A stretch of 64,000 nt of DNA from a virus (IMGVR_UViG_3300031963_000024:69753-133752), one strand, 5' to 3'. Counted from the first letter of the stretch, positions 22,251 to 56,800 are shown. Numbers and translations are program-made. The notes: generated by a model from the sequence alone, not told the origin.

Positions 22251-24047
22251 TTATCTCAATTCTCTTAAGTCAAATGTTCTAACACCATCAACTGTGATTT
22301 TACCGTAGAAACGGTTGTTCACCATCTTCTTAGCGTATCTTGTCATGATACCTTTGATAGGTGTGAAGTTGAATGGGTTATACATTGTTGGAGTCAATTG
22401 TAATGGTACGTATGGTGCGTACACATAACCTGTGTCTAACAATGAGTTACCTTTGTGACCCAACAATACTGTGTTTGGTGGGAAATAAGGGTCTCTGTAA
22501 ACTTGGTATCTACCAGCCAAAGTACCAACTCTTTCAATACCCATGTTGTATTGGTCTTGCTCAGGAGCTGCGTTTGATACGTGGAAGTATTCCAAATCAT
22601 CAAAGATTGCACTGATTTCTGAAGAAACAACAATCCAGTTAGCTCCACCTCTCAATGTTGATTTGTGGATTTGAGCTGAAAGTTGGTTGATTGCTGTAAT
22701 CAATGTTTGGTTCCAATCTTTTTGTGTGTATTGTGTTAATGGATTTGAAGCAGTTCCTCTCTTCCAACCGTTGTAATCCCATCTCAAAGTCCATGCTGCA
22801 CCTTTTCTCAAATCTCTCAAGATTTCTCTATCAATTTCTGCCGCAACTTGCTCAGACAATAAAGCTGTTAATTCAGCTTCAGCGTCAATGTTGTGGAATG
22901 CTGCAACGTCTTGTGCTAATTCAGGAGACCATTGTGCTCTCAATTTTCTTTCAGTTACAGAAACTGTTACTGATTCCAAATCAAAAGAAACTTCACCGAT
23001 TTCATCTTCAAATTCTAAGTTTTGATAAACTCTATATGTACATTTGAATGCTTGATTATATGCGGTTGTTACAGATGTTGTAACACCTGAGTAACCATCT
23101 AAAGAATCAGCACCGATTGAACAAGGAACTTGAGTATCCACCTCTAAGTAAATAATACCAAGAGCATCACAGATATTGTCATAAGAACCTCCATTACCTG
23201 TACTTGGGAATGATGTTGTTGCTTGTGAACCATATTGTACAATACCTTTACCGTATTTTTGAGTTACAACTCTAAATAATTGGTTACCAGACAATCCTGA
23301 AAAACCATTTGAAGTAGCATCTGTAATTGGTGTTACAGATAAGCTAGACAAAAACTCTTCAGAATCCATTTCGTTACCGTTAGGACCAATTAATTTACCA
23401 GCACCAGCTGTGTTAAATCCTGATAAAGCAATAATAACTTTTCTGTATTCACCAGCACTGTAACCACTTTGGATTAATTCTGAACCACTCCAAACTTGTG
23501 TAGACGCTGTGTATGTTTCAGCACTAAACTTACCTTTAGAATAGTCAAATAACCCTGGAGGGTCTAATGATGCTTCGTTACCTTCGTAGAATCTGTCATA
23601 CAAATTCTTATCGTTTGCGCCATAACCAGCATTTGTTGATGATGGTCCATTAGGTGCTCCAAAAGGTGCGAAGTGTGTACCACCTTCAGTTGGGTCTTGA
23701 CCCATGTCATAACCCTGAATTTTAGGTACGAAGTAGAACAATTTACCGATAGGTAAGTTCATAGCTTGTACAGATACGATGTCGTTAGCCAACAATTTAG
23801 AGAAAACTCTTCTTACGATTGGAAATACAACCGTTTCGAAAGAACCGTCTGATGCTGTGCTAGCAGCTTCGTTAATTAAGTGAGATGCTTGGTTTTCATA
23901 AAGTTGAGCGATGTTTTCTTTAACATGTCCTCTCAAACCTTCCAAGAATCCTAATTTGTCCCATTTGTTAATAGTATCTTCTTTGATAACTTTAAGGTGC
24001 TTAAGACCGATGTTACCAACAAGACCTGATTCTAATAATGCTCCCAT
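22251..24047 (-). CDS. Major capsid protein, T4 gp23-like
   Basis: N-terminus LLESGLVGN...AQLYENQA...VVFPIVRRVFSKLLANDIVSVQAMNLPIGKLFYF matches the conserved gp23-family block. The gene uses host-like high-expression codons (tac, aac, ttc, atc, cgt). Confidence 0.85.
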   Translation of the reverse strand: MGALLESGLVGNIGLKHLKVIKEDTINKWDKLGFLEGLRGHVKENIAQLYENQASHLINEAASTASDGSFETVVFPIVRRVFSKLLANDIVSVQAMNLPIGKLFYFVPKIQGYDMGQDPTEGGTHFAPFGAPNGPSSTNAGYGANDKNLYDRFYEGNEASLDPPGLFDYSKGKFSAETYTASTQVWSGSELIQSGYSAGEYRKVIIALSGFNTAGAGKLIGPNGNEMDSEEFLSSLSVTPITDATSNGFSGLSGNQLFRVVTQKYGKGIVQYGSQATTSFPSTGNGGSYDNICDALGIIYLEVDTQVPCSIGADSLDGYSGVTTSVTTAYNQAFKCTYRVYQNLEFEDEIGEVSFDLESVTVSVTERKLRAQWSPELAQDVAAFHNIDAEAELTALLSEQVAAEIDREILRDLRKGAAWTLRWDYNGWKRGTASNPLTQYTQKDWNQTLITAINQLSAQIHKSTLRGGANWIVVSSEISAIFDDLEYFHVSNAAPEQDQYNMGIERVGTLAGRYQVYRDPYFPPNTVLLGHKGNSLLDTGYVYAPYVPLQLTPTMYNPFNFTPIKGIMTRYAKKMVNNRFYGKITVDGVRTFDLRELR

Positions 24048-37721: not shown

Positions 37722-39806
37722 ATGATTGAATCACAAGACCAAAACGAAAAGATGGGTGGAAACCGAAAAGGTAAAACAGATACAATTAACTCCAAAACAC
37801 CTGTTTTGGACAATTTTTCTCGTGACCTTATTAAACTAGCAAAAGAAGGCAAACTTGACCCTGTAATTGGTAGGGAACATGAGATTGAAAGATTGGCACA
37901 GATTATTTCAAGAAGAAAGAAAAACAACCCTATTTTGATTGGTGAACCAGGTTGTGGTAAAACCGCAATTGTTGAAGGTTTAGCTATGAAAATATTTCAA
38001 GGAGACTGTCCTCAAAACTTAATTGATAAAAGAATTGTTAGTTTAGATATGACATCAATTGTTGCCGGTACAAAATATCGTGGACAGTTTGAAGAACGTA
38101 TTAAAGTAATACTTGATGAGTTGAGTGATAACCATGATGTTGTCATATTCATTGATGAAATTCACACAATCATTGGTGCTGGAAATTCATCAGGTTCGTT
38201 GGACGCTTCTAATATCTTTAAGCCAGCACTTGCTCGTGGTGAACTCCAGTGTATTGGTGCGACAACCTTAGATGAATACCGTGAACATATTGAAAAGGAT
38301 GGTGCGTTAGAGCGTCGTTTCCAAAAAGTACATGTTGATGCAACATCTATTGAGGACACAATTATAATTATGAATCGTGCCAAAGAAAACTACGAAAAAC
38401 ATCACAAGGTTCATTTTAGTAATGAAGTTATTAAAACTTGTGTAATGTTGGCGGACCGATACATCACTGACCGTGAGTTTCCTGATAAAGCAATTGATAT
38501 TATGGATGAGGTAGGTGCAAGATGTCAAATCAACGTAACCGTTCCTGAAATTATTGAAAAACTTAAAGAGGAAGCAAACCAAATTAAGGACCGTAAAGTT
38601 GAAGTTGTTAGAAGTCAAAAGTACGAAGAAGCTGCGGAATTACGAGATATGGAACGTAAAGTTTTAGCTCGTCTTCAAGAAGAAAAAGAGAAGTTTGAAA
38701 AAGACCGACTAACAAATAAAAAAGAAGTTACCGAAGAAATGGTTTATGAAGTTGTTTCCCAAATGACCAAAATCCCAATTTCAAAACTTTCACAATCAGA
38801 ATCAGATTCGTTAATTAATTTAGAAGAAAGTTTAACCAAAGCGGTTATTGGACAAGAAGATGCGGTATCTAAAATTTCAAAAGCAATCCGTAGGAATCGT
38901 GTAGGTATTAAAGACCCGAATAAACCAATTGGTTCATTTATTTTCTTGGGTTCAACAGGTATTGGTAAAACACATTTGGCTAAACAATTAGCCAAAGAAA
39001 TCTTTGGAAGTTCAGATGCTTTGATTCGTGTAGATATGTCTGAGTATCAAGAAAAATTTACAATGACAAGATTGGTTGGTTCGCCTCCAGGTTATGTTGG
39101 TCACCAAGAAGGTGGACAATTAACTGAACAAGTTAAAAACAAACCTTATTGTGTAATCTTGTTTGATGAAATTGAAAAGGCACACAAAGACGTTTATTCA
39201 CTTTTGCTACAAGCGATGGATGAGGGACATTTGACTGACGGTCTTGGTAGAAAAATCAACTTTAAAAATACCTTGATTATTATGACATCTAACATTGGTG
39301 CTAGAAAAGTACAAGACTTTGGTACTGGAGTTGGATTTGGAACTCGTTCTAAAAATGAAAAAGAAACTGAAATCAAACAAATGATGATTGAGGATGAACT
39401 TAAAAAGTTTTTTCCACCTGAATTTTTGAATCGTGTTGATGATGTTGTTTTCTTTAATTCATTAAAAGAAAATGAAATTAAACAAATTGTTACTTTGGAA
39501 ATTTCTAAATTAATTTTACGATTACGTTCTATGAACTATAACATTGTTATTGATGAAAGTTTGGTTAGTAGAATTTGTGAAGTTGGGTTTGATGAAAAAT
39601 TTGGGGCTCGTCCAATCAAAAGAGCTATCCAAAATCAAATTGAGGATTTTATCTCAGATGAGATTCTTAAGAAGAATATTGTTAATGATTCAGTATATAT
39701 ATTGGAGTTTGTTGATGACAAAGTTCGTATAAAAGAAAAAACATCAGAAATTACTGATGTTTCAGAAAAACCAAAAAGGGGTAGAACAAAAAAAGGGGTC
39801 AATTAA
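37722..39806 (+). CDS. ClpC/ClpB-like double-ring AAA+ unfoldase lacking Clp_N domain
   Basis: D1 module: [15 protein letters not shown], Walker [20 protein letters not shown]. Middle UVR motif [14 protein letters not shown] (ClpC-type). D2 module: [28 protein letters not shown], sensor [11 protein letters not shown] candidate VGF loop (GTGVGFGTR) is present. Confidence 0.85.
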
Positions 39807-39822
39807 GACCCCTTTTTTTTAA
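39788..39822. terminator. Bidirectional rho-independent terminator
   Basis: AAAAAAGGGGTC-AATTAA-GACCCCTTTTTTTT at a convergent junction. Confidence 0.75.
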
Positions 39823-40661
39823 TCCCATAACATCCATCGTTCCGTTTTTGGTTTGTGTTCGTGGAATGTGTGACCCAAACTTTCAATCATTTGTTTTACC
39901 ATCTCAATCGCTGTGAACACATCCTCAATAACAACATACTCATTGGCTGTGTGGTAGTTGTAATAACCACAAGATACATTTAAACAAGCAATGTTGAATT
40001 TTGATGCAATTTGTGAAACGTCAGTGTACGGGTGTTTCATCAATTCATGTTTTTCACCAAAATGTTCATTAAGAAGTGGTCCAACCTTTTCAAAGAAAGG
40101 AGAGTTACGGTCAAAAAGTTTTACACCCCAACAATATTCAGTTACCATCCAAGATTCGGGAGCATCAAACTGAATACAGTAACCAACATTAGAGAAAAAC
40201 TCAGGACTTGCTTTTCGTGAACCGTGACAACCTGTTTCTTCAGATACAAAGAAAGCCGCTTTAATAACGGGGAGTTGTTCAAGGACATCTAAACATGAAT
40301 AGACACCACATTTGTCATCACCACCAATTCCAACAGGGTTACCTGTAACTGCGTGATAAGCCTTAAAGGAATCTTTTAGTTCCCCATGTACGTTTGGGAG
40401 TTGTTCTTCCTCTACAACCATTTCAGTGATTGAGTGGACGGTGTCAGTATGTGCAATAACACATGGATAGACATCTGCCTCACCTTTTGTAACATAAACG
40501 TTACCATACTGGTCAATTGTGTGGTCGTATCCTTTTTCAGTAAAATACTTGTCAAGATACTCAATCATAAGAGTTTCTTGGTAAGTTTTAGTCGGAATAG
40601 AAAGGACTTCTTTTAGGTGTTGAATTTTTTCTGGAGTCATTTGACTACAAAGATACAACAA
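39819..40661 (-). CDS. M20/M28/M42-family zinc metallopeptidase-like protein
   Basis: Metal-ligand motifs VIAHTDTVH, GGDDKCGV and SEETGCHG. Confidence 0.45.
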   Translation of the reverse strand: MLYLCSQMTPEKIQHLKEVLSIPTKTYQETLMIEYLDKYFTEKGYDHTIDQYGNVYVTKGEADVYPCVIAHTDTVHSITEMVVEEEQLPNVHGELKDSFKAYHAVTGNPVGIGGDDKCGVYSCLDVLEQLPVIKAAFFVSEETGCHGSRKASPEFFSNVGYCIQFDAPESWMVTEYCWGVKLFDRNSPFFEKVGPLLNEHFGEKHELMKHPYTDVSQIASKFNIACLNVSCGYYNYHTANEYVVIEDVFTAIEMVKQMIESLGHTFHEHKPKTERWMLWD

Positions 40662-40666
40662 ATATT

Positions 40667-42817
40667 TTAAATTTCAAAAAGTTGATAATTTTTTAACAAA
40701 GAAATTAGTTGTTCAAAAGTTAATGTATATTTTTTAACTTTTGCCGAGTATCCAATATTTTTTTGTATTTTCACGGTTATTGTATTATCAGGTTCCACAC
40801 CAACAATTATAATCTGTGTGTCTTTTAAAGTTGGTATGTCTTTTTTAACATTAAAACCAATCTTATCAACAATGTATGATACTATTTTTTGATATTCTTG
40901 GATATCATCAAATGCGCCATCTTCTTCATCAAATAAGTTTTCATATAATTCATCTAACAATTTTTCGGATTCAGAATTAAACCTTGCGTCAAAAGTATCA
41001 TCATCTTTGTATTCATAATAATTATCAAAAATATCACTTACCGAGATTTCTTCATCAATCGCAGCAGTAATAACGGCTCTAATTGATTTTTGTGGTGAAC
41101 CATATTTTTCATAAAGTGACAACATATTGTCAACCGATGTATAATATTTACGAAAACAAACTTTAGATTCAACACCAATTGGTTCTAAAACATTACAATA
41201 TTCATCATTAACCGCAGCTTCAATTCCAACTGTATACGCATCATTAGTAGCATATTCATATTCTTCCGTCATTTTTTCTTTAAACCAATTGTGTGCGTTT
41301 AAAATTTCAGCACATTTAGAATAATAATCACTCCTATAATTTTTCATCAATTCATCTTTTTGTTGAAATAATTGTGGTGAAATGAGAGTGATAATATTAT
41401 CTAATTTTTCTTTATTTTCTTGATTTAAAGATGTTAAAACATAACCTTCCTTCCAATCTTCCTCGGCAGTATATGAATCAACCCATTCAGTTTGTCTACC
41501 ATAACTATTACCCGCAAATGACTCTAACTGTGATATTGTGTATTCGTATAGTTGATGTTTAAATAATTTAAAATAATCTTCAGGGTCAAAAAATAACATA
41601 ACATTTCCATCAACAATTTCAAAAGTTTCTTCACCACTTGTAATATTAAACGATGCGTCAATTTTATCTTTTTTATAGTTAAGTAATGTTTGATAATCAG
41701 TTCCACCAATGTTTAAAATGTTACTTAATATTTCGTCCATTCCTGGCATTGATGCGTATAACACATCAAAATTTGAACGATTGTCTTGTTGGTCCCATAC
41801 TTCAGGTTTTCCACTTTCAGGTATTCTAATGGCAAATTTTGAATTTCTAATGTTGGTTCCTTTTTTATTGATTACATAAACAAATTTTGAATTTCTAGTG
41901 TAATCGTCAAAGTATCTTGAACTATCTCTTGATGAAACACACCATTTTGTTTCCGCACCATAAACACAAGATGCTTGGTAAGTCATTGGTTGAACAATCA
42001 AATATTTTTGGTCTTCGTATAATTTTCTTGACTCATTCTTGGCTTTTTTAATTTCATCTGTTGTATATGTTCTATTTTTGATTTGACGAAAAAACTCTCT
42101 CATCGCATTTATATCTGGATATGCGTTGATGTCTTTTGGTGATTTAACAATTTTATTATACGACGAACCAAAATTTTCTAAATCACCTCTCTTCAATCTA
42201 TTTGCAAATTCTTCGGTGTCTTTTTTGGAAACTCTTCTATCAATAAAAATCATTATGTCACTAACCTGAGACATTGAATTTAACAAATTAATCCAATCAA
42301 GTTTTTTAATTTCTCTTGCCTGTGATATTACCCAAGGCAAATACTTTTTTGTTGAACTTTCATCACGAGCCCAAAGTGAATCAAATATTTCTTTTTTTAA
42401 ATTTTCATTATCAACATCTTTTCCCCAATCAATATCCAAACTTTTAAAGTCATTATATAAATCAGTTTGTTTATCTTCTCTTAATAACCCCTCAAATAAC
42501 GTTCTTAGGTCCTCTGAAGGACCGTTAAGCATCACGTCAATATAATGTGACGTTTCCTCAGGTTTATCTTCAACACTACCAAGATATTCACTTTTACCAT
42601 TATACTCACAATAAATTCCACCTTCAGGTGTTATGGTTAATGTAAATGTTAATCCGTCACCTTCAATAACATATTGTTCAGTTCCAACATCAGTGTTATC
42701 ATCATATGTACAAGTAATTCTTTCTGTTGGGAAATCAAATTTTCCCAAAATCTCTTGTATTTTAGTAATATAAGAAAAATATGAAGCTGGTTGTCCGAAA
42801 TAACTTATTTGTTCCAT
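40667..42817 (-). CDS. Hypothetical large protein
   Basis: 716-aa ORF. Confidence 0.4.
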   Translation of the reverse strand: MEQISYFGQPASYFSYITKIQEILGKFDFPTERITCTYDDNTDVGTEQYVIEGDGLTFTLTITPEGGIYCEYNGKSEYLGSVEDKPEETSHYIDVMLNGPSEDLRTLFEGLLREDKQTDLYNDFKSLDIDWGKDVDNENLKKEIFDSLWARDESSTKKYLPWVISQAREIKKLDWINLLNSMSQVSDIMIFIDRRVSKKDTEEFANRLKRGDLENFGSSYNKIVKSPKDINAYPDINAMREFFRQIKNRTYTTDEIKKAKNESRKLYEDQKYLIVQPMTYQASCVYGAETKWCVSSRDSSRYFDDYTRNSKFVYVINKKGTNIRNSKFAIRIPESGKPEVWDQQDNRSNFDVLYASMPGMDEILSNILNIGGTDYQTLLNYKKDKIDASFNITSGEETFEIVDGNVMLFFDPEDYFKLFKHQLYEYTISQLESFAGNSYGRQTEWVDSYTAEEDWKEGYVLTSLNQENKEKLDNIITLISPQLFQQKDELMKNYRSDYYSKCAEILNAHNWFKEKMTEEYEYATNDAYTVGIEAAVNDEYCNVLEPIGVESKVCFRKYYTSVDNMLSLYEKYGSPQKSIRAVITAAIDEEISVSDIFDNYYEYKDDDTFDARFNSESEKLLDELYENLFDEEDGAFDDIQEYQKIVSYIVDKIGFNVKKDIPTLKDTQIIIVGVEPDNTITVKIQKNIGYSAKVKKYTLTFEQLISLLKNYQLFEI

Positions 42818-42858
42818 TATAAATAAATACTTTGATTTGGCACTTTGAGATAATATTT

Positions 42859-42866
42859 ATATCTTT
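42859..42866 (+). promoter_or_regulatory. Sigma-A-type -7 element (TATCTTTGTAT) driving the ncRNA candidate
   Basis: TTTATATCTTTGTATAAC, a match to the recurrent motif. Confidence 0.55.
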
Positions 42867-42871
42867 GTATA

Positions 42872-43404
42872 ACAAATCACGGGTGACTCCCTTAATAGTT
42901 AAGGCTGACCTTAAGCATCTGACGCAAGTCTATACAGGGGGCGAAAGTGATTTTAATGTTCTTTGAAAATATGGGGGTGAAATAGAATCGATTGGCGTGG
43001 CTAGTCAATGGATGCACGTATGAGCTGAGTTAACTCATTAAAAACTGATTTAAAAAATTAAACGGCAACGTTTTGAACAAAATGGCAGCTATCGGTTTAA
43101 TCCGTGAAGATGCTTCTGTATTAGCTTAATTGTTAATACAACACAGGTCGGGAGACATATAACCTAGGAACAGAAGTCTTGAAAGATGTGGTTTCTATCT
43201 TAAAAGGAACAAACAGGGTGTAGGACATCCTTTAAGTTCTACCACCGTGGCTGAACGGTGTGAAAATTCAGATATTTTGGATTGTTAGAAAACAATAACC
43301 TAAACGTGTAGTATCTTTTGGTTGGGACGAACAAGACCGCAGGGCGGTACTGCGCACTTCCACTAAACAAATTAAAGTGGTCTAATTTGACCACTTTTTT
43401 TTTT
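42872..43404 (+). ncRNA. Large structured ncRNA candidate (~530 nt), unclassified
   Basis: No ORF of 60 aa or more on either strand over ~600 nt in an otherwise tightly packed genome. GC content is visibly higher than the flanks. Multiple local and long-range helices are present (AAATCAC...GTGATTT; CACCG-TGGCTGAA-CGGTG; CGCAG-GGCGGTA-CTGCG). It is bounded by an upstream promoter motif and a strong terminator. Confidence 0.5.
43376..43404 (+). terminator. Rho-independent terminator
   Basis: GTGGTC-TAATTT-GACCAC followed by T10. Confidence 0.75.
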
Positions 43405-43424
43405 GTAAATTAAAAAAATTGTCG

Positions 43425-43432
43425 TATCTTTG
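43425..43432 (+). promoter_or_regulatory. Sigma-A-type -7 element (TATCTTTGTAT), TTTG about 20 nt upstream as a possible -33
   Basis: GTCGTATCTTTGTATTG. A TTTG at ~43402 gives the Bacteroidetes -33/-7 spacing. Confidence 0.55.
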
Positions 43433-43452
43433 TATTGTTAATCACTACCACT

Positions 43453-44193
43453 ATGACAAACACAACCACTAAACTCAACGCCAAAATCAGAAACTACAAC
43501 GGTCAAAATGACTTCGTTCGCAAAATGAAACAAGTAGTATTCCAATACGGAGGACTAACTGAAAAACAAGCCCAAGCAGCTGAAAAAGCATTGGCCGAAC
43601 CAACAAAAGTTGAGACACGTTTCCTACCTGACAATATGAGAAAAATCGCTGACTACTCAGGTGAAAACACCTTCGTGTTGGATGTAAAAGGTAAGTTCCT
43701 TAAATACGGTACTTTGTCAGACGCACAAGTATCTGCAGCAAACAAACAAATCCAAAAAGAAAATGACGACAAAAACCGAATGGACGTGAACATTGACGTA
43801 ATCGGTGAAACAATCGTGGTAGGTCGTAACACAGGTGAGGACTTGAAAAAACAAAAAGGTTTGAACTTCAACCCACTTTTGTTGGACATCACTGAGGTTG
43901 TTACCTTGACTGCAAAAGCGGTAAAATTCAAAGGTAAATTGACAACCAAAAACTGTGGTGTCTGCAAATCATGTGGTCGTACCTTGACCGATGAGTTCTC
44001 TCGTCTAACAGGATACGGTAAGACATGTGCAAAACACTTGAGAGTTGAGTACATCAAAGACAAGTCTGAAGTTGAACGTTTCAACCAAGATGTACTTGCA
44101 AGAATTGAAGAGATTGGTGAAATGGAATTTTGGGTTCCTCGTCGTCAAATCAAAGTGTGGAACGGAGTTTCAGCAATGTTGTTGAAATTCTAA
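43453..44193 (+). CDS. Hypothetical highly-expressed early protein with internal duplication and C-terminal CxxC...CxxC/H zinc ribbon
   Basis: The ORF track starts at 43435, but the -7 element ends at 43432, so the start is more likely the ATG at 43453 (near-leaderless). Codon usage is sharply different from its neighbours (ttc, aac, gac, tac, atc, cgt), like the capsid gene. Duplicated ~27-aa module (FVRKMKQVVFQYGGLTEKQAQAAEKAL / FVLDVKGKFLKYGTLSDAQVSAANKQI). Zinc-ribbon motif CGVCKSCGR...CAKH. Confidence 0.55.
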   Translation: MTNTTTKLNAKIRNYNGQNDFVRKMKQVVFQYGGLTEKQAQAAEKALAEPTKVETRFLPDNMRKIADYSGENTFVLDVKGKFLKYGTLSDAQVSAANKQIQKENDDKNRMDVNIDVIGETIVVGRNTGEDLKKQKGLNFNPLLLDITEVVTLTAKAVKFKGKLTTKNCGVCKSCGRTLTDEFSRLTGYGKTCAKHLRVEYIKDKSEVERFNQDVLARIEEIGEMEFWVPRRQIKVWNGVSAMLLKF

Positions 44194-44205
44194 TAAACAA
44201 AAACC

Positions 44206-44241
44206 GATAAGTGTTTGATACTTCGGTATCAAATACTTATC
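44206..44241 (+). other. Perfect 16-bp stem-loop with UUCG tetraloop (processing/stability element or U-tract-less terminator)
   Basis: GATAAGTGTTTGATAC-TTCG-GTATCAAATACTTATC with one G.U pair. No trailing U-tract. Confidence 0.5.
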
Positions 44242-44255
44242 ATTACACAAAGTAT

Positions 44256-44765
44256 ATGGAAAAAGTATTAGTATTAAACAGCGATTACACACCCTTGAAC
44301 GTAACAACAATGCGTAGAGGATTTGTATTGGTTGATAAAGGTAAAGCTGAGGTATTGAAGAAGGATGAGAATCCCATTATTACCACTATTGGTAACTTTG
44401 TAAGACCTATCATCATTAGATTGCTCAGTTATATCAGAATTAAGAAAAACGCTAAAGATATCAAGATTTCCCGTTCACGAGTTTATCAAAGGGACGATTA
44501 TGCTTGTGTATATTGTGGAGGATTAAAGAAATTAACGATTGACCATGTCATACCAAAATCTCGTGGTGGTGATAACACTTGGGAAAACATGGTCACTTGT
44601 TGTTTTGATTGTAACTCAAGGAAGGGGAGTAAGACACCTGAAGAGGCTGGTCTGAAATTTAGGGTTCGTCCTTATAGACCCTCCGTTTTTTCTGAATTGG
44701 TTGCAGGTCGTGCCGCACATATTTGGGAAGAGTTTCAACAAGACTTCTTTAGTTATCCAAAATAA
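44256..44765 (+). CDS. HNH endonuclease (McrA-like)
   Basis: Start moved to MEKVLVLN (ATG at 44256), downstream of the hairpin. HNH motif YACVYCGG...LTIDHVIPKSRGGDNTWENMVTCCFDCNSRKG. Confidence 0.85.
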   Translation: MEKVLVLNSDYTPLNVTTMRRGFVLVDKGKAEVLKKDENPIITTIGNFVRPIIIRLLSYIRIKKNAKDIKISRSRVYQRDDYACVYCGGLKKLTIDHVIPKSRGGDNTWENMVTCCFDCNSRKGSKTPEEAGLKFRVRPYRPSVFSELVAGRAAHIWEEFQQDFFSYPK

Positions 44766-44792: not shown

Positions 44793-44878
44793 GCTTGGGT
44801 GGCGGAATAGGTAGACGCGCTGGACTTAAAATCCAGTGAACAGTAATGTTCGTACGGGTTCGATTCCCGTCTCAAGTA
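44793..44878 (+). tRNA. tRNA-Leu (anticodon UAA), type II with long variable arm
   Basis: Acceptor GCTTGGG/CTCAAGT (two G.U pairs). D-arm GCGG-AATAGGTAGA-CGC. Anticodon arm CTGGA-CTTAAAA-TCCAG. Long variable arm. T-arm ACGGG-TTCGATT-CCCGT. Discriminator A. No encoded CCA. Confidence 0.8.
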
Positions 44879-44887
44879 CTAAAAGAA

Positions 44888-45610: not shown

Positions 45611-46915
45611 TTAAATATCCAAATAATATGGACTATCTTTATCTTGTTGGATTCTAAATCTCTGTGAAATTAATGTATCTAACTTAGCTCTGTCTTTTAA
45701 ATCAGAAGATTTCTGACAATATAATATTTTGTCTTTAATTGGTCTTAATTGTGCGTCAGTTATATTTGGCGCTTGGTTTACCTTTTTCAATCTTCTGTAA
45801 TTTAATGCTTGTTCGGAATAATAATCAAACAATGATTTACAAGTTGCGTAAGCAGGTATACCAGTACCAACAGCATTTGCGTAATCATTTAAATACTTTA
45901 ACTCAATTGGTGTTGATGTTGTAGTATTTGTTGGTGGTGCAGTTGTTTTTTGTCCCGAAGATGAGACACACAACTTTTTGTATTGTTCAATACTACATAT
46001 TAATTCTTTACTGATATTACCATTGGTATTATCTAATCCGTTTTTACCTTTATAATCAATTATAAACTTATCAAAATCATCAGTAAAATAAGGTGTACTA
46101 TCTTTTGTATAACCTAAAGCTTTTTTAATTCTGGCAACTGTATCGCTTTTTTCTCCCCTTATTACTTCATCACCACCACCAATTACTGATGTAATTATTT
46201 TACCTGAAGCGTTTTTGTAGTTGTCATCTTCAGTTTGTTTTTTTGGAATGCCATTAACAACATTAACAACAACTATTTTTGATGCTTGTTCTAAAATTTG
46301 TGATAAACCACTACTTCTTTTTAATTGAATTCCCTCATATAATGTTAAGTAGTTTTGTAGACTTGGTAAATGAAGGTCAATTTTACTTTGTATATCTTCA
46401 TCTGTTTTATATTTAGAAATATTTTTACCATATAACGATAAAATTGCTCCAACATATGAAGTTTCTTCATTAAAGTTTTTACTTAAAAAATGTTTAATTT
46501 TATTACTTACTTGTTGATTGTATTCTAAATTGAATTTTTCATTATTAACTGATAAAAAATTTACTGATTCATTAAATTTATCAAATATTTCTTTTGCTTT
46601 GTCTACGGTTTCTGATTGTTGTGCTGCACCACCACCTGACGTTAAAGATTGTTGATACTCATTACCATACTTTTGGTATGCAGTTCTAATTGTATTATTG
46701 TTAAATGGTCCTGTCGCTGATAAATTTATTTGCGTTGCATATGCCGCATCAGTTTGTCTAACCCACGCTCTAAACGCATCACCTTCAGCTTGTGTTTTAA
46801 ACGGTGTTGAAGGTAATTGGGTACCTCCTGAATTCTCACCTGTGTTAGTGTTAGTTTTTTGAGGTTTACCAGTTTTTTTTGGTTTGTCTTCTAATAATAT
46901 TTTTTCTAATCCCAT
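45611..46915 (-). CDS. Hypothetical protein (possible virion component)
   Basis: 434-aa ORF in a block of large minus-strand ORFs. Confidence 0.4.
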   Translation of the reverse strand: MGLEKILLEDKPKKTGKPQKTNTNTGENSGGTQLPSTPFKTQAEGDAFRAWVRQTDAAYATQINLSATGPFNNNTIRTAYQKYGNEYQQSLTSGGGAAQQSETVDKAKEIFDKFNESVNFLSVNNEKFNLEYNQQVSNKIKHFLSKNFNEETSYVGAILSLYGKNISKYKTDEDIQSKIDLHLPSLQNYLTLYEGIQLKRSSGLSQILEQASKIVVVNVVNGIPKKQTEDDNYKNASGKIITSVIGGGDEVIRGEKSDTVARIKKALGYTKDSTPYFTDDFDKFIIDYKGKNGLDNTNGNISKELICSIEQYKKLCVSSSGQKTTAPPTNTTTSTPIELKYLNDYANAVGTGIPAYATCKSLFDYYSEQALNYRRLKKVNQAPNITDAQLRPIKDKILYCQKSSDLKDRAKLDTLISQRFRIQQDKDSPYYLDI

Positions 46916-46920
46916 GATAA

Positions 46921-48243
46921 TTATTGTTCAAGATATTTAAAACTGTTGCCGTCCTCAGTGTATTTATAATCAACACCATTTACATCTGTTACAATATAAA
47001 CATTACCTTCTTTATTGAATTTTTCTTTACCAGTGTAGTCAGCTCCCCAATCTTTTTTAATAAATTCTTTAAAATTAAATAATGGGTCAACCTTCTGTAT
47101 TTGTTTTTTACCTTTATCCCACAATTTATTAGCCGATTCCATTGAAATGTTTTCAGATAGCATATCTTTGGTATCCGATAAGAATGTTGCTGGTAACCAA
47201 AGTGGTGTGTAAAAAAACTTCATACCAATTTTACTTATAAAGTATTCTTGCCATTCAGTTAAAGCAACTTCTTTTTGGGTGTCAGTCATTGTTTCCCATT
47301 CAGGATACTTGGTGTTAACCCATTTTGTAAAAAGTGCATCTTTAATTCTTAAACTCTGAATTATTGAGTATCCGCTAATTACTAACCCGATTGTAAAATA
47401 CCACTGTAGTACTCCTGTCAATTTATTACCTTCAAATTTATAATTTTTCAAAAACTTAGTTATCCATGATGTTTTATAATTTGCTGGTAACTCATCATAA
47501 ATTTTTTGAATATCATTGGTTAAATATGTTAAAACATTTTCATATGTGGGTTCGTTAACATTTTTAACAATTTTATTATATAAACCATCTAAAAACTCTT
47601 GAGCATTTCTTTTTTTAGTTATTGCATTAAATTGGTCTTTTGTATTTGGGTCGGTAAGTAATTCAACTAAAGCATCATCTGCGTTTTTAGTTATTGTATT
47701 TTTACCAACTTTGATTTCTTCGTATACCCAATTAAATATTTTTTTCTGTGTTAGAATAGATGGGTCAGTTAAAAGTGAGTTTGTAATTTTTTTAATATTT
47801 ACTATGTCTTCTATACCTACTTTTTTCAAAAATAATTTAAAGTCATCGTATTCTAGAGCTCCTAAATCTTTAAGTAATGGTTTGTTTATTAATAAATTAT
47901 CAACAAAAGTTTTTTCTAATTTAGTATTGCTATTTATTAATTTTAAAAATTTTGATATTGCGTCTTCTTTAGTTGAAGTAGCTAATTCAGAAACTATTTT
48001 ACTAGCTCTTGCAAATTCATCATCAACATTTGTTATATTTTTACCTAAATTAGGAAACTCAGTCAAAAAATCATCAATTGAATTTGCGAACACATTTTTT
48101 TCGGCTCTTGAAAATGTTTTAATTCCTGATAGTACGTTATCTAATACACTTAAAACTGTTGGGAGTAATCCTTCAGCTTCCGTTATCAACATCAATTCTC
48201 TATATCTTTTGATTTCACTAATAATATTTTGTTTCATAATCAT
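46921..48243 (-). CDS. Hypothetical protein
   Basis: 440-aa ORF. Confidence 0.4.
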   Translation of the reverse strand: MIMKQNIISEIKRYRELMLITEAEGLLPTVLSVLDNVLSGIKTFSRAEKNVFANSIDDFLTEFPNLGKNITNVDDEFARASKIVSELATSTKEDAISKFLKLINSNTKLEKTFVDNLLINKPLLKDLGALEYDDFKLFLKKVGIEDIVNIKKITNSLLTDPSILTQKKIFNWVYEEIKVGKNTITKNADDALVELLTDPNTKDQFNAITKKRNAQEFLDGLYNKIVKNVNEPTYENVLTYLTNDIQKIYDELPANYKTSWITKFLKNYKFEGNKLTGVLQWYFTIGLVISGYSIIQSLRIKDALFTKWVNTKYPEWETMTDTQKEVALTEWQEYFISKIGMKFFYTPLWLPATFLSDTKDMLSENISMESANKLWDKGKKQIQKVDPLFNFKEFIKKDWGADYTGKEKFNKEGNVYIVTDVNGVDYKYTEDGNSFKYLEQ

Positions 48244-48261
48244 ATAAATATATTGTAAAAG

Positions 48262-50199
48262 TTATTTATTTGTTTGTGTAGTATCAGCATTGATAAATAA
48301 ATTCTTTTCATCTGGTTTTAATTCAACATCAAACATACCTGATAAATCAATTTCATTATCCATATTATTAATTGTTGTGTCTAAACCATTTGTAATTTTT
48401 TCTAAGAAAGTATTATATTCATTTTTAGCGGTGTTTTCTTTTATCTTATTAATAATCTTTCTTTTTTCCTTAATATCATCAAGAATTTCTTTAGCGTTAT
48501 TGAATTTTTTTTCGGTAAATAACTTTTCAAAATTTGTTTTTAATTGATTTTGTTCATTTTCTGTTAGGGTCTGGTCCGCAGACAATGAGTTAAAGATTAA
48601 ATCAAACATTTCCAATCTAGTTTTAGATTGTATTTCTGCATCATCCAATGTATCCCAAAGAGAATATAAGGCTAATCCTGTTACACCAAGTTCAGCACCT
48701 ATTTTTTGACCAATTATGTTAGATTTAACAGGACTTGATTTTACAAGTTCTTTAATTTTATTCTGTGCGTTTATATTTTTTACTGAATTTATTACCTTTT
48801 CTAAATTACCTGTTTTTGATAACGCATCCATTATTTTTAACTCTTCGTCAGTCAATGTTTTGAATACATTTGCAACATCACTTTTTGTAGCGTTTGCAAA
48901 CTTTTTGGCCAAGTTTGTGGCCTCCGAAGGACTAACTTTAATACCAAATGATGCAAATGGTGTAAATGCAAGTATGGTACTTAACAAAGCTCCCGCAGAA
49001 TCACCTGAATCTGATTGTATTTTTGCTGCAACTAAATCTAAACCAAGAGATGCTAAATAAGCAATTAAATTACCTTTACCAAGTACGCTAACAATTATGG
49101 AAACCCCATTTAGTATTAAAGGACCATATTCTTCAATAAATGATGCATTACCATATCTTAATTTATCGTAAGGAATTAATTTATCATTTGATTTGAAATA
49201 ATATTTTTTTGATATTTCGTAATTTCCTTCGTTATTTACATATAAATTTTTTTTCCAAACATATTCATCATATGGTGGTGGTAGTATAAAATCTTTTACA
49301 GTATCTTTAATTTTACTAAATATCAATTGATATAAATCACCATTTTTAGGTGCGTTACCTGATTGATAAAGTCCTTTAGGTGAATTTGTAAAACGTCTTA
49401 ATTCATCATCTGTCAATTTGGTTATAAATGATTTTTTAATTGAGTCTACCGAATTAAAATCTTCGTAAGTAAAATAACTAACTTTACTATTTTTTGGTAG
49501 GTCAACATCACCATATTCATTAAAGGATGCAAATTTTGTTTTACCATATTTATCATTCAATTTTTTAACCTCTTGGCAGTACTCGGGATAGTACGCACAG
49601 CTACCCGAATTTTTTTGATATTGTATAATATAATCATCCAATTCTTTTCCTGATAAACCACTCCCATATGGTGAAACCATTTTTTTGGTACCAACACCAA
49701 ATTGTTTTTTTAGTTCGGCTAATTCTCTTTGATATAAAGATTCAATATTTTTAAGTTGTTCTTTTTGTTTTAAAACCGGTGTTAATTTTTCTTGTTGTTT
49801 TGGGTCATACTCAGGAAATTGTTGTTGGAATCTTCCACCTGGTCCTAAGTAGTCTGATTGAGGTATTTGAGGCTTTTCAAATTTTGGAATTTGAGTTGTT
49901 TGTGTTTTTGGCATCTGAGAAACAATTTTATTAATGTTTCTTCCTGCCAATGCTGTTTGAATTTTATTAAAATCAGCGGTTTGTGGGTATTGATTATTTG
50001 TAATGTTTGGGTATATATCTTTTGCTGGTATGTTTGAGTTGTTAGTTCCAGGATACCCAACCAATTTACCTGATGGTGTGTAATAATATCCACCTTGTTC
50101 CAATATTATTTCTCTGTTTTCAGAAAGCGTTTTTGAAGAATCATACCTCATACAAAGTAAAATTTCATTTAATATGTCTTGTGGATTCTGATTACTCAT
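48262..50199 (-). CDS. Hypothetical large protein
   Basis: 645-aa ORF. Confidence 0.4.
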   Translation of the reverse strand: MSNQNPQDILNEILLCMRYDSSKTLSENREIILEQGGYYYTPSGKLVGYPGTNNSNIPAKDIYPNITNNQYPQTADFNKIQTALAGRNINKIVSQMPKTQTTQIPKFEKPQIPQSDYLGPGGRFQQQFPEYDPKQQEKLTPVLKQKEQLKNIESLYQRELAELKKQFGVGTKKMVSPYGSGLSGKELDDYIIQYQKNSGSCAYYPEYCQEVKKLNDKYGKTKFASFNEYGDVDLPKNSKVSYFTYEDFNSVDSIKKSFITKLTDDELRRFTNSPKGLYQSGNAPKNGDLYQLIFSKIKDTVKDFILPPPYDEYVWKKNLYVNNEGNYEISKKYYFKSNDKLIPYDKLRYGNASFIEEYGPLILNGVSIIVSVLGKGNLIAYLASLGLDLVAAKIQSDSGDSAGALLSTILAFTPFASFGIKVSPSEATNLAKKFANATKSDVANVFKTLTDEELKIMDALSKTGNLEKVINSVKNINAQNKIKELVKSSPVKSNIIGQKIGAELGVTGLALYSLWDTLDDAEIQSKTRLEMFDLIFNSLSADQTLTENEQNQLKTNFEKLFTEKKFNNAKEILDDIKEKRKIINKIKENTAKNEYNTFLEKITNGLDTTINNMDNEIDLSGMFDVELKPDEKNLFINADTTQTNK

Positions 50200-52359: not shown

Positions 52360-52652
52360 GTTTTACAATAGATTTAGATGAATATGCCGAAGGTGCCATT
52401 TTGTTAGATGGACTTGAGGAGGCAATTATTGGAATTGTTGAGGAATTTGGAAATGGTAGACGAATCTTATATTCTAAACCAAAAATACTATCAATATTAT
52501 GTGAAAGAGATTTGATGACAATGGGTGAGGCCGAAGAATTTTACGATTATAACATTTTAGGTTTACATGCTGGTGAACAAAATGCGGTATTCCTTGATGT
52601 TGATGTGTCCGTAAAAAAAACAGGAGAAGGTTACAAGTATTTGGTTAGTTAA
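52356..52652 (+). CDS. Hypothetical protein
   Basis: ATGA-coupled ORF. Confidence 0.35.
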   Translation: MSFTIDLDEYAEGAILLDGLEEAIIGIVEEFGNGRRILYSKPKILSILCERDLMTMGEAEEFYDYNILGLHAGEQNAVFLDVDVSVKKTGEGYKYLVS

Positions 52653-52663
52653 AATTTTAATAC

Positions 52664-52671
52664 TATCTTTG
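52664..52671 (+). promoter_or_regulatory. Sigma-A-type -7 element (TATCTTTG), leaderless configuration
   Basis: ACTATCTTTGTGGTATG. The ATG at 52676 is about 5 nt after the motif. Confidence 0.5.
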
Positions 52672-52675
52672 TGGT

Positions 52676-53326
52676 ATGAAATTGATTTTAGAAAAAGGTC
52701 AGCAGTTATTTTTCACGAGTGATACACATTATTCTCACTCTAATATCTGCCGTGCAACAACTCGTTGGGCTGGTTCTGAAAACTTAACCCGTGATTTCAA
52801 GTCTCTTGACCACATGAATGACACATTGGTAAATAACATCAACGAAATGGTTGGTGAAAATGATGTTTTGATTCACTTAGGTGACTGGTCTTTTGGCGGG
52901 TTTGAACAAATTGAAGAGTTTCGTAACAGAATTTTATGTAAAAATGTTCACTTGGTTTATGGAAACCACGACCATCACATTCGTAGAAACAAAGAGAATG
53001 TTCAAAGTTTGTTCACATCAACTCAAGATTATATCCACTTGGATTTAAGAATCCCAAACGGAAAAGAAATGGACAAACTTTCAATTGTATGTATGCACTA
53101 CCCAATTGCAAGTTGGAACGGAATGAACGATGGTGTAATTCACTTACACGGTCACGTTCACTTACCTCCACACCTTAGAATTAACGATGGTAAGGCAATG
53201 GACGTGGGTGTTGATGGTAACAACTTGTATCCAATTAACATCAAAGAAATTCGTTCAATTATGAAAGACCGACCACACAAAAAATTGACATTACCTAAAG
53301 ACCATCACGAAAAAAGAATTGACTAA
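52676..53326 (+). CDS. Calcineurin-like metallophosphoesterase (candidate RNA 2',3'-cyclic/3'-phosphatase)
   Basis: MPE motifs: TSDTHYSH, LGDWSFGG, GNHDHH, MHYP, GHVH. Confidence 0.65.
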   Translation: MKLILEKGQQLFFTSDTHYSHSNICRATTRWAGSENLTRDFKSLDHMNDTLVNNINEMVGENDVLIHLGDWSFGGFEQIEEFRNRILCKNVHLVYGNHDHHIRRNKENVQSLFTSTQDYIHLDLRIPNGKEMDKLSIVCMHYPIASWNGMNDGVIHLHGHVHLPPHLRINDGKAMDVGVDGNNLYPINIKEIRSIMKDRPHKKLTLPKDHHEKRID

Positions 53327-53853: not shown

Positions 53854-56800
53854 ATGAAAAAATTATTACTTTTAATGATGTTCTTGTTCAGTTTTTTAAC
53901 TGTTCAGGCAACCCACATGATGGGTGCAGATGTTTCCTACAAATGTTTAGGAAATGGAAAGTACAAAATAATTGCTAAAGTTTACCGAGATTGTAGAGGT
54001 GTGTCTATGGGTACACCGTCATTTGGCACTTATGCAGGATTAAATGGTGGAAATGGATGTGGTAGTTACACATTAAGTGGACTATCAAGGGTTTCAATTA
54101 AAGACGTAACAACAAGATGTTCAACAAGTAGTAATCCATGTGGTACCGCAAATTCCGCCTTTGCGAATAAAGGTGTTGAAGAACACACATTTGAAGCCAC
54201 GATTGATTTTAATACGTCACCATTAAACAATTTTGTAAATAAATCAACATGTTGTGAGGTTACATTTTATGTGAATGAGTGCTGTAGAAATGGTGGTATT
54301 ACAACAGGACAGTCAAATCAAAACTTTTACGCCACGGCAATGGTTAACATTTGTAACCTTCAAAAAATGAAGAACAAGTGTAACAGTTCACCACAATTAT
54401 CTAACCCACCTATTGCCTTTTTATGTTGTAATCAACCTTGGTATTACAATAATGGTGCGACTGACACAATAGATTATGATTCAATTTCATATAAGTTAGT
54501 AAATGGGCTTCAGGGTATTCCTAACAGTTCAGTTTCATATTCATCACCATTTACTGCTAGAGTGCCTATGACACCGTATTGTGTACCACCAACGACAATT
54601 AACTGTACACCAAACCCAAAAACAAACCCACCAAGAGGTTTTTATTTTGATACAACAAATGGTGATATTATTACAACACCAACCAAATGTGATGAATCTG
54701 CGGTTATATGTGTTGAACAAACTGAATGGAGAAAAGACACGTCTGGTGTATGGCGTGTAATTGGTAGAACAAGACGTGACATGCAGGTATGGGTTAGGGA
54801 TGATTGTGGATATAACAAAGCACCGACTTTGGGTCCCAAGTTTACTTACAAAGTATGTGAGGGTGAAACTTTGAAGTTTAAGGTTGAATCTGATGATGAA
54901 ACTTTTACACCATATCAGACAACTCCTGATACAACAACAATGAAATGGAACAACGGTATTCCTGGCGCGAAGTTTACATTGGCGAATAAGAGTGATTGGC
55001 CAGAAAAAAGAAAGTCTTACGCAAACTTTGAATGGACACCGCCAATTGGTTCGGCTTCTGATATATCATATTCATTTACAGTTACCGTTAGTGACGAACA
55101 CTGTGAACCACCAGCAACATCAATTCGTTCATTTAAGATTAAGGTAAATCCAAAACCTACATCAAAACGTAGATATACCCAATTAAAATGTGGAAGGTTC
55201 GCCATGGAAGCGTATGAGTTATATGCCGCAACAAGTTATTCATGGAGTGTTAGAGATACTTTGGCGAACGAGTTATTTTACTCTTCAAAGAAAACCGATA
55301 CCATGAATTACTATTATGAAGGTAAGTATATTATCATTCATAAATTAACAAGTGCCCAATCATGTGTTACGATTTATAGTGATACCGTTTATTTAACCCA
55401 ACCACCAAAAGTTGTATTGGCAGATGCTGATAGTTTTGCTTGTAAAGAAACTACATTTACATTGAAGGCTAAAGTAATTGCTGGTAAACCTACTTTGAAA
55501 TACAAATGGAATAATGGTGATACCACCGATTTCACAACGATTAAAAACTTCAAATCTGATTCAACGTTGATGTTGGAAGTAACTGATGGTGATGGTTGTA
55601 AGTTCCGTGATACCACATTAACATTTGTTAAACCACTACCTGTTATTACTTTCGGTTCAGATAAGGTTATCTGTACGTATGAAACTAATACATTTGATGG
55701 TCAAAACAATGACACGGTAAAATACTTGTGGAGTACGGGTGATACAACTCGTTACATGACAACAAACCTAAAAGGTAGTTATTGGGTTAGAATTACTGAT
55801 ACGACATATCAGTGTGTGAAGTATGACACGGCAATACTTGTTGTGAATGATACTGTCATATCTAATGCTGGACCTAACCAATCAATATGTGATAAAGATA
55901 CATTCACCTTGACTGCCAATCATAAACCAACATCATTGACTCCTACATATACTTGGGGTGGATTAGGGAATTTATCAACCTATAAGTTAAAATCTGATAT
56001 TACAAAGTTAACTTATATGTTTACATTGAAGACGGTGTTGACTCAAAACGGGCACACTTGTGAAGATATGGATACAATTTTTGTAAGGGTTAAACCATTA
56101 CCAAAAATTGGTTGGGACCCAAAACCATTGAAACCTCAATGTTATTCTTATGGTAGTGTATGGATGGAACCATTCTTGGTTAAACCTCATAACTTTGGAA
56201 CATATGAAATATGGAGCGGAAACAAAAATAAAATAGGAAACATTGTTACGAATCCATCTAACGGAAGGTTCCTATTCAACACAATATCAGTAGATAATAG
56301 TAAATTACAAGGAGGTAATAACTTTACTACAAAAGTTTATGTTAAGTTTAACGATACAAATGGTTGTTCAAACATGGATTCAACAACACAAACAATATAT
56401 GGTACACCCATTATCCAATTAAGAAAGGCGACAGTATGTCAAGATATTGGGTCAATGATGATGGACAATTTGAGAGTAAGACCAGCAACCAAAAATGGTG
56501 TGAACATGTTATGGGAAGTTGTTAGAGCACCTAATGGTGTGGACACATCTAAACTACTTTATAATATTTCTACGAACTCAATTCCAAACATTAGATTTAA
56601 CTTTGGTGCACCTTCACAGGATTATTACAAAGGTTTGTACACTTTCAAACTTACCGTTAAAGATTTAATTACGGGTTGTCAAAGTACCGACACTGTTGAT
56701 GTAAATATCATTACAGAACCTAAAGTTGAATTGACAACCATACCTCTTTATTGTGAAAATTCAGGTGTGAGTATTAATTTATTTGATTACATTTTGGTGG

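Follow-up and report, generated by a model that had tools for sequence, protein, structure and literature searches.

The gene at positions 43453..44193 (+) of the window, by which we mean the whole 64,000-nt stretch of viral DNA that was analysed, displays the strongest codon bias in that window and encodes a protein of 246 aa (27.9 kDa, pI 9.4) that starts with ATG. This protein, hereafter the target protein, represents a new uncultured subfamily of the catalogued and uncharacterised DUF6011/phrog_4046 family and not a new type of system. Our best explanation of the data taken as a whole, which we put forward tentatively, is that the gene constitutes an early single-gene cassette of an uncultured T4-like myophage infecting Bacteroidota and that its product would be abundant and would bind nucleic acids.

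The window has a G+C content of 31.5% and contains a 598-aa ORF (22251..24047, -) for a gp23-type major capsid protein. The best matches of the latter, at 42–44% identity, are to an uncultured 484-kb phage, Microcystis phage Mel-JY01 and the Flavobacterium "immuto" phages, with T4-like cyanophages coming next. Bacteroidota-type promoters found in the sequence point to a member of this phylum as the probable host. No near-identical DNA around the target gene was present in 50,697 cultured phage records. The exact target protein was found in many metagenome samples, the longest contig with it being 120 kb.

The start of the gene had originally been placed at 43435, where the mechanically defined ORF (43435..44193, +) opens at a TTG codon. 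The true start is almost certainly the ATG at 43453, because all homologues begin there (MTNTTT or MNTTT), because the gene callers used on the metagenomes picked the same ATG, and because the predicted transcription start (∼43437) falls 3' of the TTG. The coordinates were therefore corrected to 43453.

Codon usage was assessed for 64 non-overlapping ORFs of the window, each at least 80 aa long, with an index that measures the share of C in C/T-ending two-fold codons (Phe, Asn, Asp, Tyr, His, Cys and the AGY codons of Ser) together with ATC versus ATT for Ile. The target gene ranked first among the 64: C-ending codons made up 51 of its 64 two-fold pyrimidine codons (0.80), compared with 0.26 for the other 63 ORFs pooled (Fisher p=7e-19; z=6.0; mean of the other ORFs 0.26, SD 0.09). 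The capsid gene came second, with 0.58. Thus, the abrupt switch to C-ending codons, shared with the capsid gene, that had been predicted initially was confirmed, as was the preference for AT-ending synonyms in the remainder of the genome. An S-like index, calculated for Phe, Tyr, Ile and Asn relative to the genome, gave 2.60 for the target gene, 1.54 for the capsid gene and -0.02 +/- 0.51 for the remaining ORFs. The C-ending preference for these four amino acids is reportedly the criterion behind the S index of Sharp et al. 2005, and by this criterion the target gene belongs to the class of translationally optimised genes.

Other codon families are affected as well. None of the 20 Leu codons in the target gene is TTA, which accounts for 54% in the genome (p=2e-7), whereas TTG makes up 65% of them; ATA is likewise missing among the 11 Ile codons. 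CGT represents 54% of the Arg codons versus 16% in the genome, and in the capsid gene 96% of the Arg codons are AGA. Although GC3 of the target gene is elevated (0.40 versus about 0.21 elsewhere in the window), the bias does not reflect a shift in G+C content, because the share of G-ending codons for Lys, Glu and Gln is no different (0.16 versus 0.15); there is also no increase in GGC, CCC or TCC among the four-fold codons. The bias is limited to the wobble classes that are open to tRNA-driven selection and therefore fits translational selection rather than base composition.

In order to examine the same preferences in related phages, homologue-encoding loci were collected, five through look-up of the exact protein and 80 from IMG/VR, and the orthologue could be placed in 83 of these 85 loci. 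Its codon index was usually the first or the second among the local genes of the 83 loci, and it ranked at the top in 32 of the 68 distinct loci. The pooled orthologues of the 67 loci other than the window favour TTC, AAC, GAC, TAC, CAC, ATC, CGT, TTG and GGT and shun TTA, ATA and AGA; the differences from the background are considerable for CGT (0.59 versus 0.14), TTG (0.43 versus 0.19) and ATC (0.62 versus 0.17). Orthologues at 50–60% identity keep the same codon preferences. There are exceptions: the syntenic orthologues in L002, L003 and L008 (79% identity) reach an index of only 0.27, and that in L052 an index of 0.18, which is lower than in its flanks. The lineage of L002 and L008 may have lost the bias, for example in a different host where translational selection is weak.

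It could be argued that the codon pattern stems from a recent transfer from a host, an origin that the original prediction had also entertained, or from a local mutational or strand effect, instead of selection on expression. The target gene does form a lone plus-strand island amid genes of the minus strand, and its higher GC3 would be expected under such a reading. However, the adjoining HNH endonuclease gene (44256..44765, +) is located on the same strand and has ordinary codon use (index of 0.30), and neither the G-ending codons nor the four-fold GGC, CCC and TCC are elevated in the target gene. The target gene is syntenic within the clade of the window and diverges in step with its neighbours: the protein is 97.5%, 94%, 79% and 61% identical to its counterparts in L006, L007, L002 and L012, respectively, and the neighbouring Clp-type ATPase 95%, 94%, 79% and 72%. 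Furthermore, the preferred codons are common to orthologues of distant phages, and a motif-seeded scan of 185,579 bacterial and archaeal species (one genome each), the sensitivity of which is bounded by the motif patterns, returned no homologue. All long contigs bearing the gene (38–320 kb) are phage-like. Recent host origin is rejected because the gene diverges together with its neighbours and has no homologue in the bacterial scan; more generally, the data contradict both a host and a mutational source for the bias, and we consider either extremely improbable. The simplest reading is that translational selection has been maintained throughout the family.

The region upstream of the gene contains a Bacteroidota primary-sigma promoter (43402..43432, +), composed of a -33 TTTG element (43402..43405), a 19-nt spacer and a -7 box, TATCTTTG (43425..43432). 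The -33/-7 consensus of Bacteroidota promoters has been described, with the G of the -7 box corresponding to position -5 (PMC6847099). The arrangement in the window, TTTG-N19-TATCTTTG, is an exact match to TTTG-N18-21-TANNTTTG and also conforms to the sigma-ABfr pattern, i.e. a -7 box TAnnTTTG in which n is never G and a TTTG at -33, ∼19 nt further upstream. The early promoter predicted for this gene was accordingly recovered, as a perfect match to the host type. Nearly all of 60 distinct homologue loci place a -7 box 20–29 nt ahead of the ATG, and 45 of the 60 additionally have the -33 TTTG.

If the G of this box marks position -5, transcription is expected to start near 43437, and the leader (43437..43452, +) would therefore be 16 nt long; the near-leaderless start proposed earlier has to be revised to a leader that is short and yet not absent. 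A distance of 20 nt separates the end of the -7 box from the ATG, and the transcript is thus not predicted to be of the leaderless class. The leader is devoid of a Shine-Dalgarno sequence and carries A at positions -3, -6, -12 and -13; in Flavobacterium johnsoniae, A at these four positions promotes initiation (PMC6847099). Among the family loci, A is found at -12 and -13 in 80% and 84%, respectively, compared with 50% for other genes. The Thr-rich N-terminus that follows (TNTTTKLNA; 43456..43482, +) is encoded by A/C-rich, G-poor codons, which keep the start region unstructured. Residues 2–10 contain 3.5 Thr on average across the family, and the mean folding energy of the region from -20 to +43 is -0.84 kcal/mol versus -4.58 +/- 3.37 kcal/mol for other genes.

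The gene is delimited by hairpins on both sides. Downstream, a perfect 16-bp hairpin with a UUCG loop (44206..44241, +) is located 13 nt past the stop codon; it has a folding energy of -21.1 kcal/mol (z=-7.3), is not followed by a T-run and probably represents the 3' end of the transcript or a stabiliser. Strong hairpins no more than 70 nt past the stop codon were found in 51 of 57 distinct homologue loci, many of them being classical terminators. Upstream, the terminator hairpin of a tmRNA gene (43374..43397, +), a terminator-like site with a T-run, insulates the target gene from upstream transcription; the same hairpin is kept in L002, L003 and L006, where it also precedes the orthologue. 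Judging from these sequence features, we infer that the target gene is a self-contained single-gene cassette for high and early expression by the host RNA polymerase. Selection for very high expression, which had been suggested from codon choice, is supported indirectly by the bias in wobble classes, the bias of distant orthologues, the promoter, the open start region and the 3' hairpin, and very high expression of the gene is what we infer from them.

The following sequence of events may be envisaged. The host RNA polymerase with its primary sigma factor would read the TTTG/TATCTTTG promoter once the phage DNA has entered the cell. The A-rich leader of 16 nt and the unstructured, Thr-coding 5' end would favour initiation on the Shine-Dalgarno-blind ribosomes of Bacteroidota, and the gene body, written in what would be fast codons of the host (NNC, ATC, CGT, TTG and GGT) with TTA, ATA and AGA avoided, would then be translated. 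The strong hairpin would close the expression unit. The product would be made early and in very large amounts and could act stoichiometrically on an abundant target, the likeliest mode being binding of nucleic acids, either phage or host DNA, or RNA and ribosomes.

A product made in such quantities might also be a structural one. We considered the possibility that the protein is a bulk structural or scaffolding component, for instance one that coats or compacts the phage DNA ahead of packaging or from which a replication compartment is built; the high expression would then meet a demand for material and not serve host takeover. Even the capsid gene is less biased in its codons, and a basic protein is kept in phages of both ∼110 kb and ∼300 kb, as might be expected of such a component. 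Nevertheless, the promoter is of the host type and not a T4-like late promoter motif, the gene is located among early-looking genes outside of the structural block (22–36 kb), and searches of PHROGs revealed no similarity to any virion protein family; a structural role is hence quite improbable.

The neighbourhood of the gene was described in the original prediction as lying between an ncRNA and an HNH/tRNA unit, and this description holds. The ncRNA is a full-length tmRNA (42973..43365, +; Rfam RF00023, 53.6 bits versus a cut-off of 47) with its own promoter at 42836..42867, whereas the HNH endonuclease gene and a tRNA-Leu(UAA) gene (44793..44879, +), the cognate TTA codons of which are absent from the target gene, are found downstream. 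Such a setting raises the possibility that the target protein is dedicated to the phage tmRNA, as an RNA chaperone or a counterpart of SmpB, or else to the translation apparatus, and that it forms a functional unit with the tmRNA and tRNA-Leu. The gene is positioned 88 nt downstream of the tmRNA and upstream of the tRNA, and its product is basic and is predicted to possess a small barrel with a weak resemblance to those of Sm/Hfq. Moreover, the tmRNA immediately precedes the orthologue in L002, L003, L006 and L008; the Rfam gathering threshold missed the tmRNA in L002 and L003, both of which were recovered by nhmmer. The arrangement is looser in L007 and L009–L012, where as much as about 540 nt can separate the upstream tmRNA from the orthologue, with another gene intervening in the case of L007 and L009. 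In the jumbo contigs L071 and L073, however, the tmRNA is ∼5 kb off on the opposite strand, and in most orthologue loci no tmRNA was detected within +/-8 kb by nhmmer with the tmRNA of the window as a query, a search that divergent copies could escape. Adjacency to tmRNA is limited to the clade of the window and there is therefore no conserved physical link between the two genes. The target gene also has a promoter and a terminator of its own, and neither an SmpB model nor an SmpB structure was matched, so that assignment to the SmpB proteins is not indicated. Taken together, a dedicated partnership with the tmRNA appears very improbable. Clustering of the gene neighbourhoods in the 68 distinct loci disclosed no conserved annotated neighbour of the target gene.

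A confident structural model of the target protein was obtained with AlphaFold from 30 homologues (pLDDT 86, pTM 0.61). The model shows helical repeats and a small beta-barrel, which may be of the SH3/Sm-like type, with a three-cysteine DUF6011 knuckle inserted in the barrel. Read from the N-terminus, the model opens with a single helix and the two repeat modules of two helices each, continues through a beta-hairpin, a further helix and a pair of strands to the cysteine knuckle, which bears two short helices, and closes with a long helix, another pair of strands and the capping helix.

The first repeat (aa 11–48; 43483..43596, +) is a two-helix module with the motif NY.G.N.F...K......YG.LT.KQ..A..K, the helices of the model spanning residues 20–32 and 37–47; K26, G33, L35, T36, Q39 and K45 are invariant. 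The second copy (aa 64–101; 43642..43755, +) lies within the conserved core of the wider family. Across 60 diverse members, Q92 is invariant and Y68, G70 and L88 are conserved in at least 90%. Comparison of aa 11–48 with aa 64–101 by BLASTP gave E=3e-9 at 34% identity, and alignment of the family sub-alignments of the two repeats with hhalign gave a probability of 98.6% (E=6e-16). The internal duplication that had been predicted is thus real, although the repeats are longer than the ∼27 aa originally assigned to them. Conserved Lys, Gln and aromatic residues are found in the repeats.

The first part of the beta-barrel (aa 110–163; 43780..43941, +) comprises strands 110–123, 143–152 and 156–163 and a helix at 125–135, and includes an invariant FNP motif. 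It is followed by the DUF6011 cysteine motif (aa 169–197; 43957..44043, +), with C171, C174, C192 and H195 (...CGRTLTDEFSRLTGYGKTCAKH), and by the C-terminal part (44062..44187, +), which contains a helix (aa 204–221), barrel strands 224–229 and 233–237, the capping helix and the invariant residues E220, G222, W227 and P229.

A C-terminal zinc ribbon of the CxxC-x17-CxxH type had been assigned to the protein. The motif itself (C171-x2-C174-x17-C192-x2-H195) is present, but it is not at the extreme C-terminus, 51 residues following H195, and the His is not conserved. C171, C174 and C192, along with G189, L178 and S183, are invariant in 60 members, down to about 21% identity. Among 238 homologues with CxxC-x17-C, H195 is found in 121, C173 in 145 and neither in 60. 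We considered swapping between C173 and H195 as the fourth metal ligand and rejected it, the pattern being unclean in view of the 60 of 238 homologues with neither residue. The cysteine motif probably binds zinc, although conservation does not extend to the fourth ligand.

The cysteine motif is what links the target protein to a described family: Pfam DUF6011 (PF19474) matches aa 169–197 with 32.5 bits versus a cut-off of 26.6 (E=6e-8). Matches to DUF6011 at E<=1 were obtained for all 30 aligned homologues, several of them under the cut-off. A word-indexed search retrieved 360 homologues at E<=1e-3, all of which are unnamed or spuriously named, and an exhaustive search of representatives yielded 216 clusters with a common core (aa ∼65–235) and variable N- and C-terminal additions. 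Distant homologues that are longer (310–500 aa) contain no additional Pfam domain. One sequence, P0129, carries NqrA domains and looks like a chimeric or read-through gene call. Among cultured phages, tblastn produced only weak matches, namely hypothetical proteins encoded by Bacillus phage G and by Lysinibacillus phages, and INPHARED contains no cultured-phage member of the ∼245-aa subfamily. No match to the target protein was found in NCBIfam or PADLOC, and a full-text literature search for DUF6011 retrieved no papers. It appears from these searches that the protein is conserved in hundreds of uncultured large phages and, as far as the limited motif-based scan of bacteria extends, is specific to phages.

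The uncharacterised phage proteins of DUF6011 and PHROG 4046, 6032, 25989 and 636 have in common with the target protein the CxxC-x17-C knuckle and the ...LTD..S...G.G..C signature. The core made up of barrel and knuckle recurs in gp639 of Bacillus phage G and in an uncultured Caudovirales protein, as seen both in structure (Foldseek E=4e-8 and 4e-15, respectively) and in sequence. DUF6011 is a model of a 37-residue motif, whereas the target protein adds the duplicated N-terminal two-helix module; its ∼245-aa subfamily is distinct within DUF6011 and includes only metagenomic phages with Bacteroidota-type promoters.

Searches for more distant relatives were largely negative. Sequence searches of the PDB, run with the protein alone and with two profiles, gave no meaningful match, and Foldseek comparison with the PDB revealed no solved structural match beyond weak hits to Sm/Hfq-like barrels; in BFVD, Foldseek retrieved uncharacterised phage proteins only, gp639 of Bacillus phage G among them. 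The Sm/Hfq (LSm) fold is characterised by an N-terminal helix and a five-stranded bent barrel, and these proteins are, together with other small SH3-like barrels that bind nucleic acids, among the known systems to which the target protein would be closest. The helix-hairpin-helix, Hfq/LSM, SmpB and gp32 models were not matched by the target protein. The LTD..S...G.G..CA segment was also considered as a helix-hairpin-helix, and none of eight diverse segments matched such a family at E<=10.

Two known proteins bear some resemblance to the target. The C4 zinc finger of DksA/TraR (CxxC-x17-CxxC) has the same cysteine spacing and the same CxxCG start. Nevertheless, the target protein does not qualify as such a finger: there is no match to zf-dskA_traR in Pfam at E<=1, the target protein lacks the fourth Cys, and it has neither the coiled coil nor the acidic tip, its model displaying a beta-barrel before the motif instead. 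The second is the single-stranded DNA-binding protein (SSB) of the T4 gp32 type, which the target gene resembles in being a non-structural gene of a T4-like phage with predicted high expression and in encoding a beta-barrel together with a Cys3(+His) motif. However, no match to gp32 or SSB was obtained in Pfam, PHROGs, or the sequence and fold searches of the PDB, the target protein is devoid of the acidic C-terminal tail, and the order of ligands and the type of barrel differ. Among the ten suitably sized ORFs of the window no gp32-type SSB was found, an absence that carries no weight because the window seems to be without a replication module.

Our best guess is that the target protein is an abundant early nucleic-acid-binding factor. 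This mode of action is favoured because the protein is basic (29 Lys and 13 Arg versus 31 acidic residues), combines a small barrel with a cysteine knuckle, and holds the conserved Lys, Gln and aromatic residues in the repeats. It could entail the coating or protection of DNA, or else the targeting of RNA or ribosomes. Among jumbo phages, PhiKZ014 of Pseudomonas phage PhiKZ is an abundant immediate-early protein that sits on the 50S subunit and clamps the 5S rRNA, its abundance being explained by the ribosome as a target (PMC10914614). PhiKZ014 would provide a precedent for targeting of RNA or ribosomes, although no similarity in sequence or fold to the target protein was detected and both the host phylum and the phage lineage differ. 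By extension, the target protein could belong to an unrecognised class of takeover factors, i.e. immediate-early, abundant binders of RNA or ribosomes with an Sm-like barrel and a Cys3 knuckle that reprogram translation on Shine-Dalgarno-blind ribosomes. We regard this more specific possibility as rather unlikely; by analogy with PhiKZ014, such a factor might cooperate with the tmRNA and tRNAs of the phage.

Abundance would equally suit an anti-defence protein that is made first and in bulk, such as an ArdC-like anti-restriction factor that binds ssDNA or DNA, a decoy or a sponge for the signalling molecules of defence, since large amounts would be needed to saturate a defence before it fires. 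The consensus immediate-early promoter and the extreme translational optimisation are consistent with this alternative, as is the wide distribution of a phage-specific family. Weak matches to the ssDNA-binding N-terminal domain of ArdC (PF08401) were obtained over repeat 2 in 10 of 30 members (best E=5e-4), and Foldseek gave low-probability matches to the c-di-GMP-binding barrels of PilZ. However, the ArdC-N matches are sub-threshold, the best members scoring 14.7–17.8 bits versus a cut-off of 22.6, and the protein of the window itself has no match; the similarity is a lead and not a match, and an anti-defence function is unlikely. The preferred reading is still that of an abundant early factor that binds nucleic acids.

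Large Bacteroidota phages of fresh waters are, to our knowledge, almost entirely uncultured. Judged from its codon usage and expression signals, the target gene probably ranks near the top of the early genes in expression strength in hundreds of related phages, the genomes of which measure 100–320 kb. It may therefore serve as a conserved signpost for this group of large Bacteroidota phages, in which it is a well-marked candidate for one of the main early proteins, and it is a sensible first choice for biochemistry. Its promoter, leader and 5' codon design would offer a ready-made strong expression cassette for Bacteroidota. Finally, codon bias can flag candidate abundant early proteins in uncultured phages from sequence alone.

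The strong preference of the DUF6011 gene (43453..44193, plus strand) for C-ending codons is not shared by all of its relatives. In the metagenomic phage loci L002, L003 and L008, syntenic orthologues (6001-6738 / 7998-8735) encode proteins 79% identical to the window protein and retain the consensus promoter. Their codon bias is nearly gone, with an index (the share of C-ending codons at pyrimidine-ending choices) of 0.27 versus 0.19-0.21 in the flanking genes. However, the orthologues in L009-L011, which are just as distant, have retained it (0.68-0.70), and comparison of these sequences therefore points to lineage-specific relaxation in L002, L003 and L008, perhaps in a host with weak translational selection. 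Near the orthologues in related loci, we found two further families of small genes with a strong C-ending bias. The first (152 aa; e.g. L007 7444-7905) has a Thr-rich, MTTT-type N-terminus and a mean index of 0.71, and is located one to three genes upstream of the orthologue; in the second (91 aa; e.g. L004 1129-1404), the index averages 0.54. Both families lack a Pfam match and are absent from the window. The members of these families may belong to a set of abundant early proteins that are expressed together.

In P0029, a homologous protein with 58% overall identity, the final ~57 residues match the window protein exactly, while the remainder resembles another subgroup; P0029 is either a recombinant or the product of a chimeric metagenome assembly. 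The metagenome contig L087 encodes a protein identical to that of the window, and no HNH gene was called between its gene and the next one (1742-2460); L086 and L088 do have an HNH gene. The HNH gene may be degraded or variably present among contigs, as expected for a homing endonuclease.

After the DUF6011 gene, the highest codon index among non-structural genes (0.52) belongs to a phosphoesterase gene (52676..53326, in the region 52640-53326; phrog_547). Only 4 nt separate the end of its TATCTTTG -7 box from the ATG, and with this spacing the rule that puts the G of the -7 box at position -5 (PMC6847099) predicts a truly leaderless mRNA. The peptidase gene at 39819..40640 (phrog_4191) would have a leader of ~3 nt. 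A 1511-aa ORF (53854-58389) had no PHROG match at E<=1e-5, and several more large minus-strand ORFs (45611..50199) likewise matched no family.

In the region 37722-42817, the peptidase gene is paired with one for a ClpB/ClpC-like AAA+ ATPase (37722..39806; phrog_4871, E=1e-241), and a single 716-aa gene without known function stands between this pair and a phage-encoded tmRNA (42973..43365). The tmRNA was recovered at full length by Rfam (53.6 bits) and was not detected by ARAGORN; it possesses its own TTTG/TATCTTTG promoter (42836..42867) and terminator (43374..43397). If translation resumes at the position indicated by the Rfam alignment, its predicted tag is (A)GNVLNKMAAIGLIREDASVLA*, an unusually long peptide with VLA at its end. 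The tmRNA is also kept in related phage contigs, among them two jumbo contigs of ~304 kb. Together, the Clp-like ATPase, peptidase and tmRNA look like a phage cluster for proteostasis, or tagging and degradation.

A phage-encoded tRNA-Leu(UAA) (44793..44879) is located 600 nt downstream of the DUF6011 gene. TTA accounts for 54% of Leu codons in the genome, 43% in the major capsid gene and none of the 20 in the DUF6011 gene. This pattern fits an early gene whose codons suit the tRNAs of the host; genes expressed later could rely on the phage tRNA.
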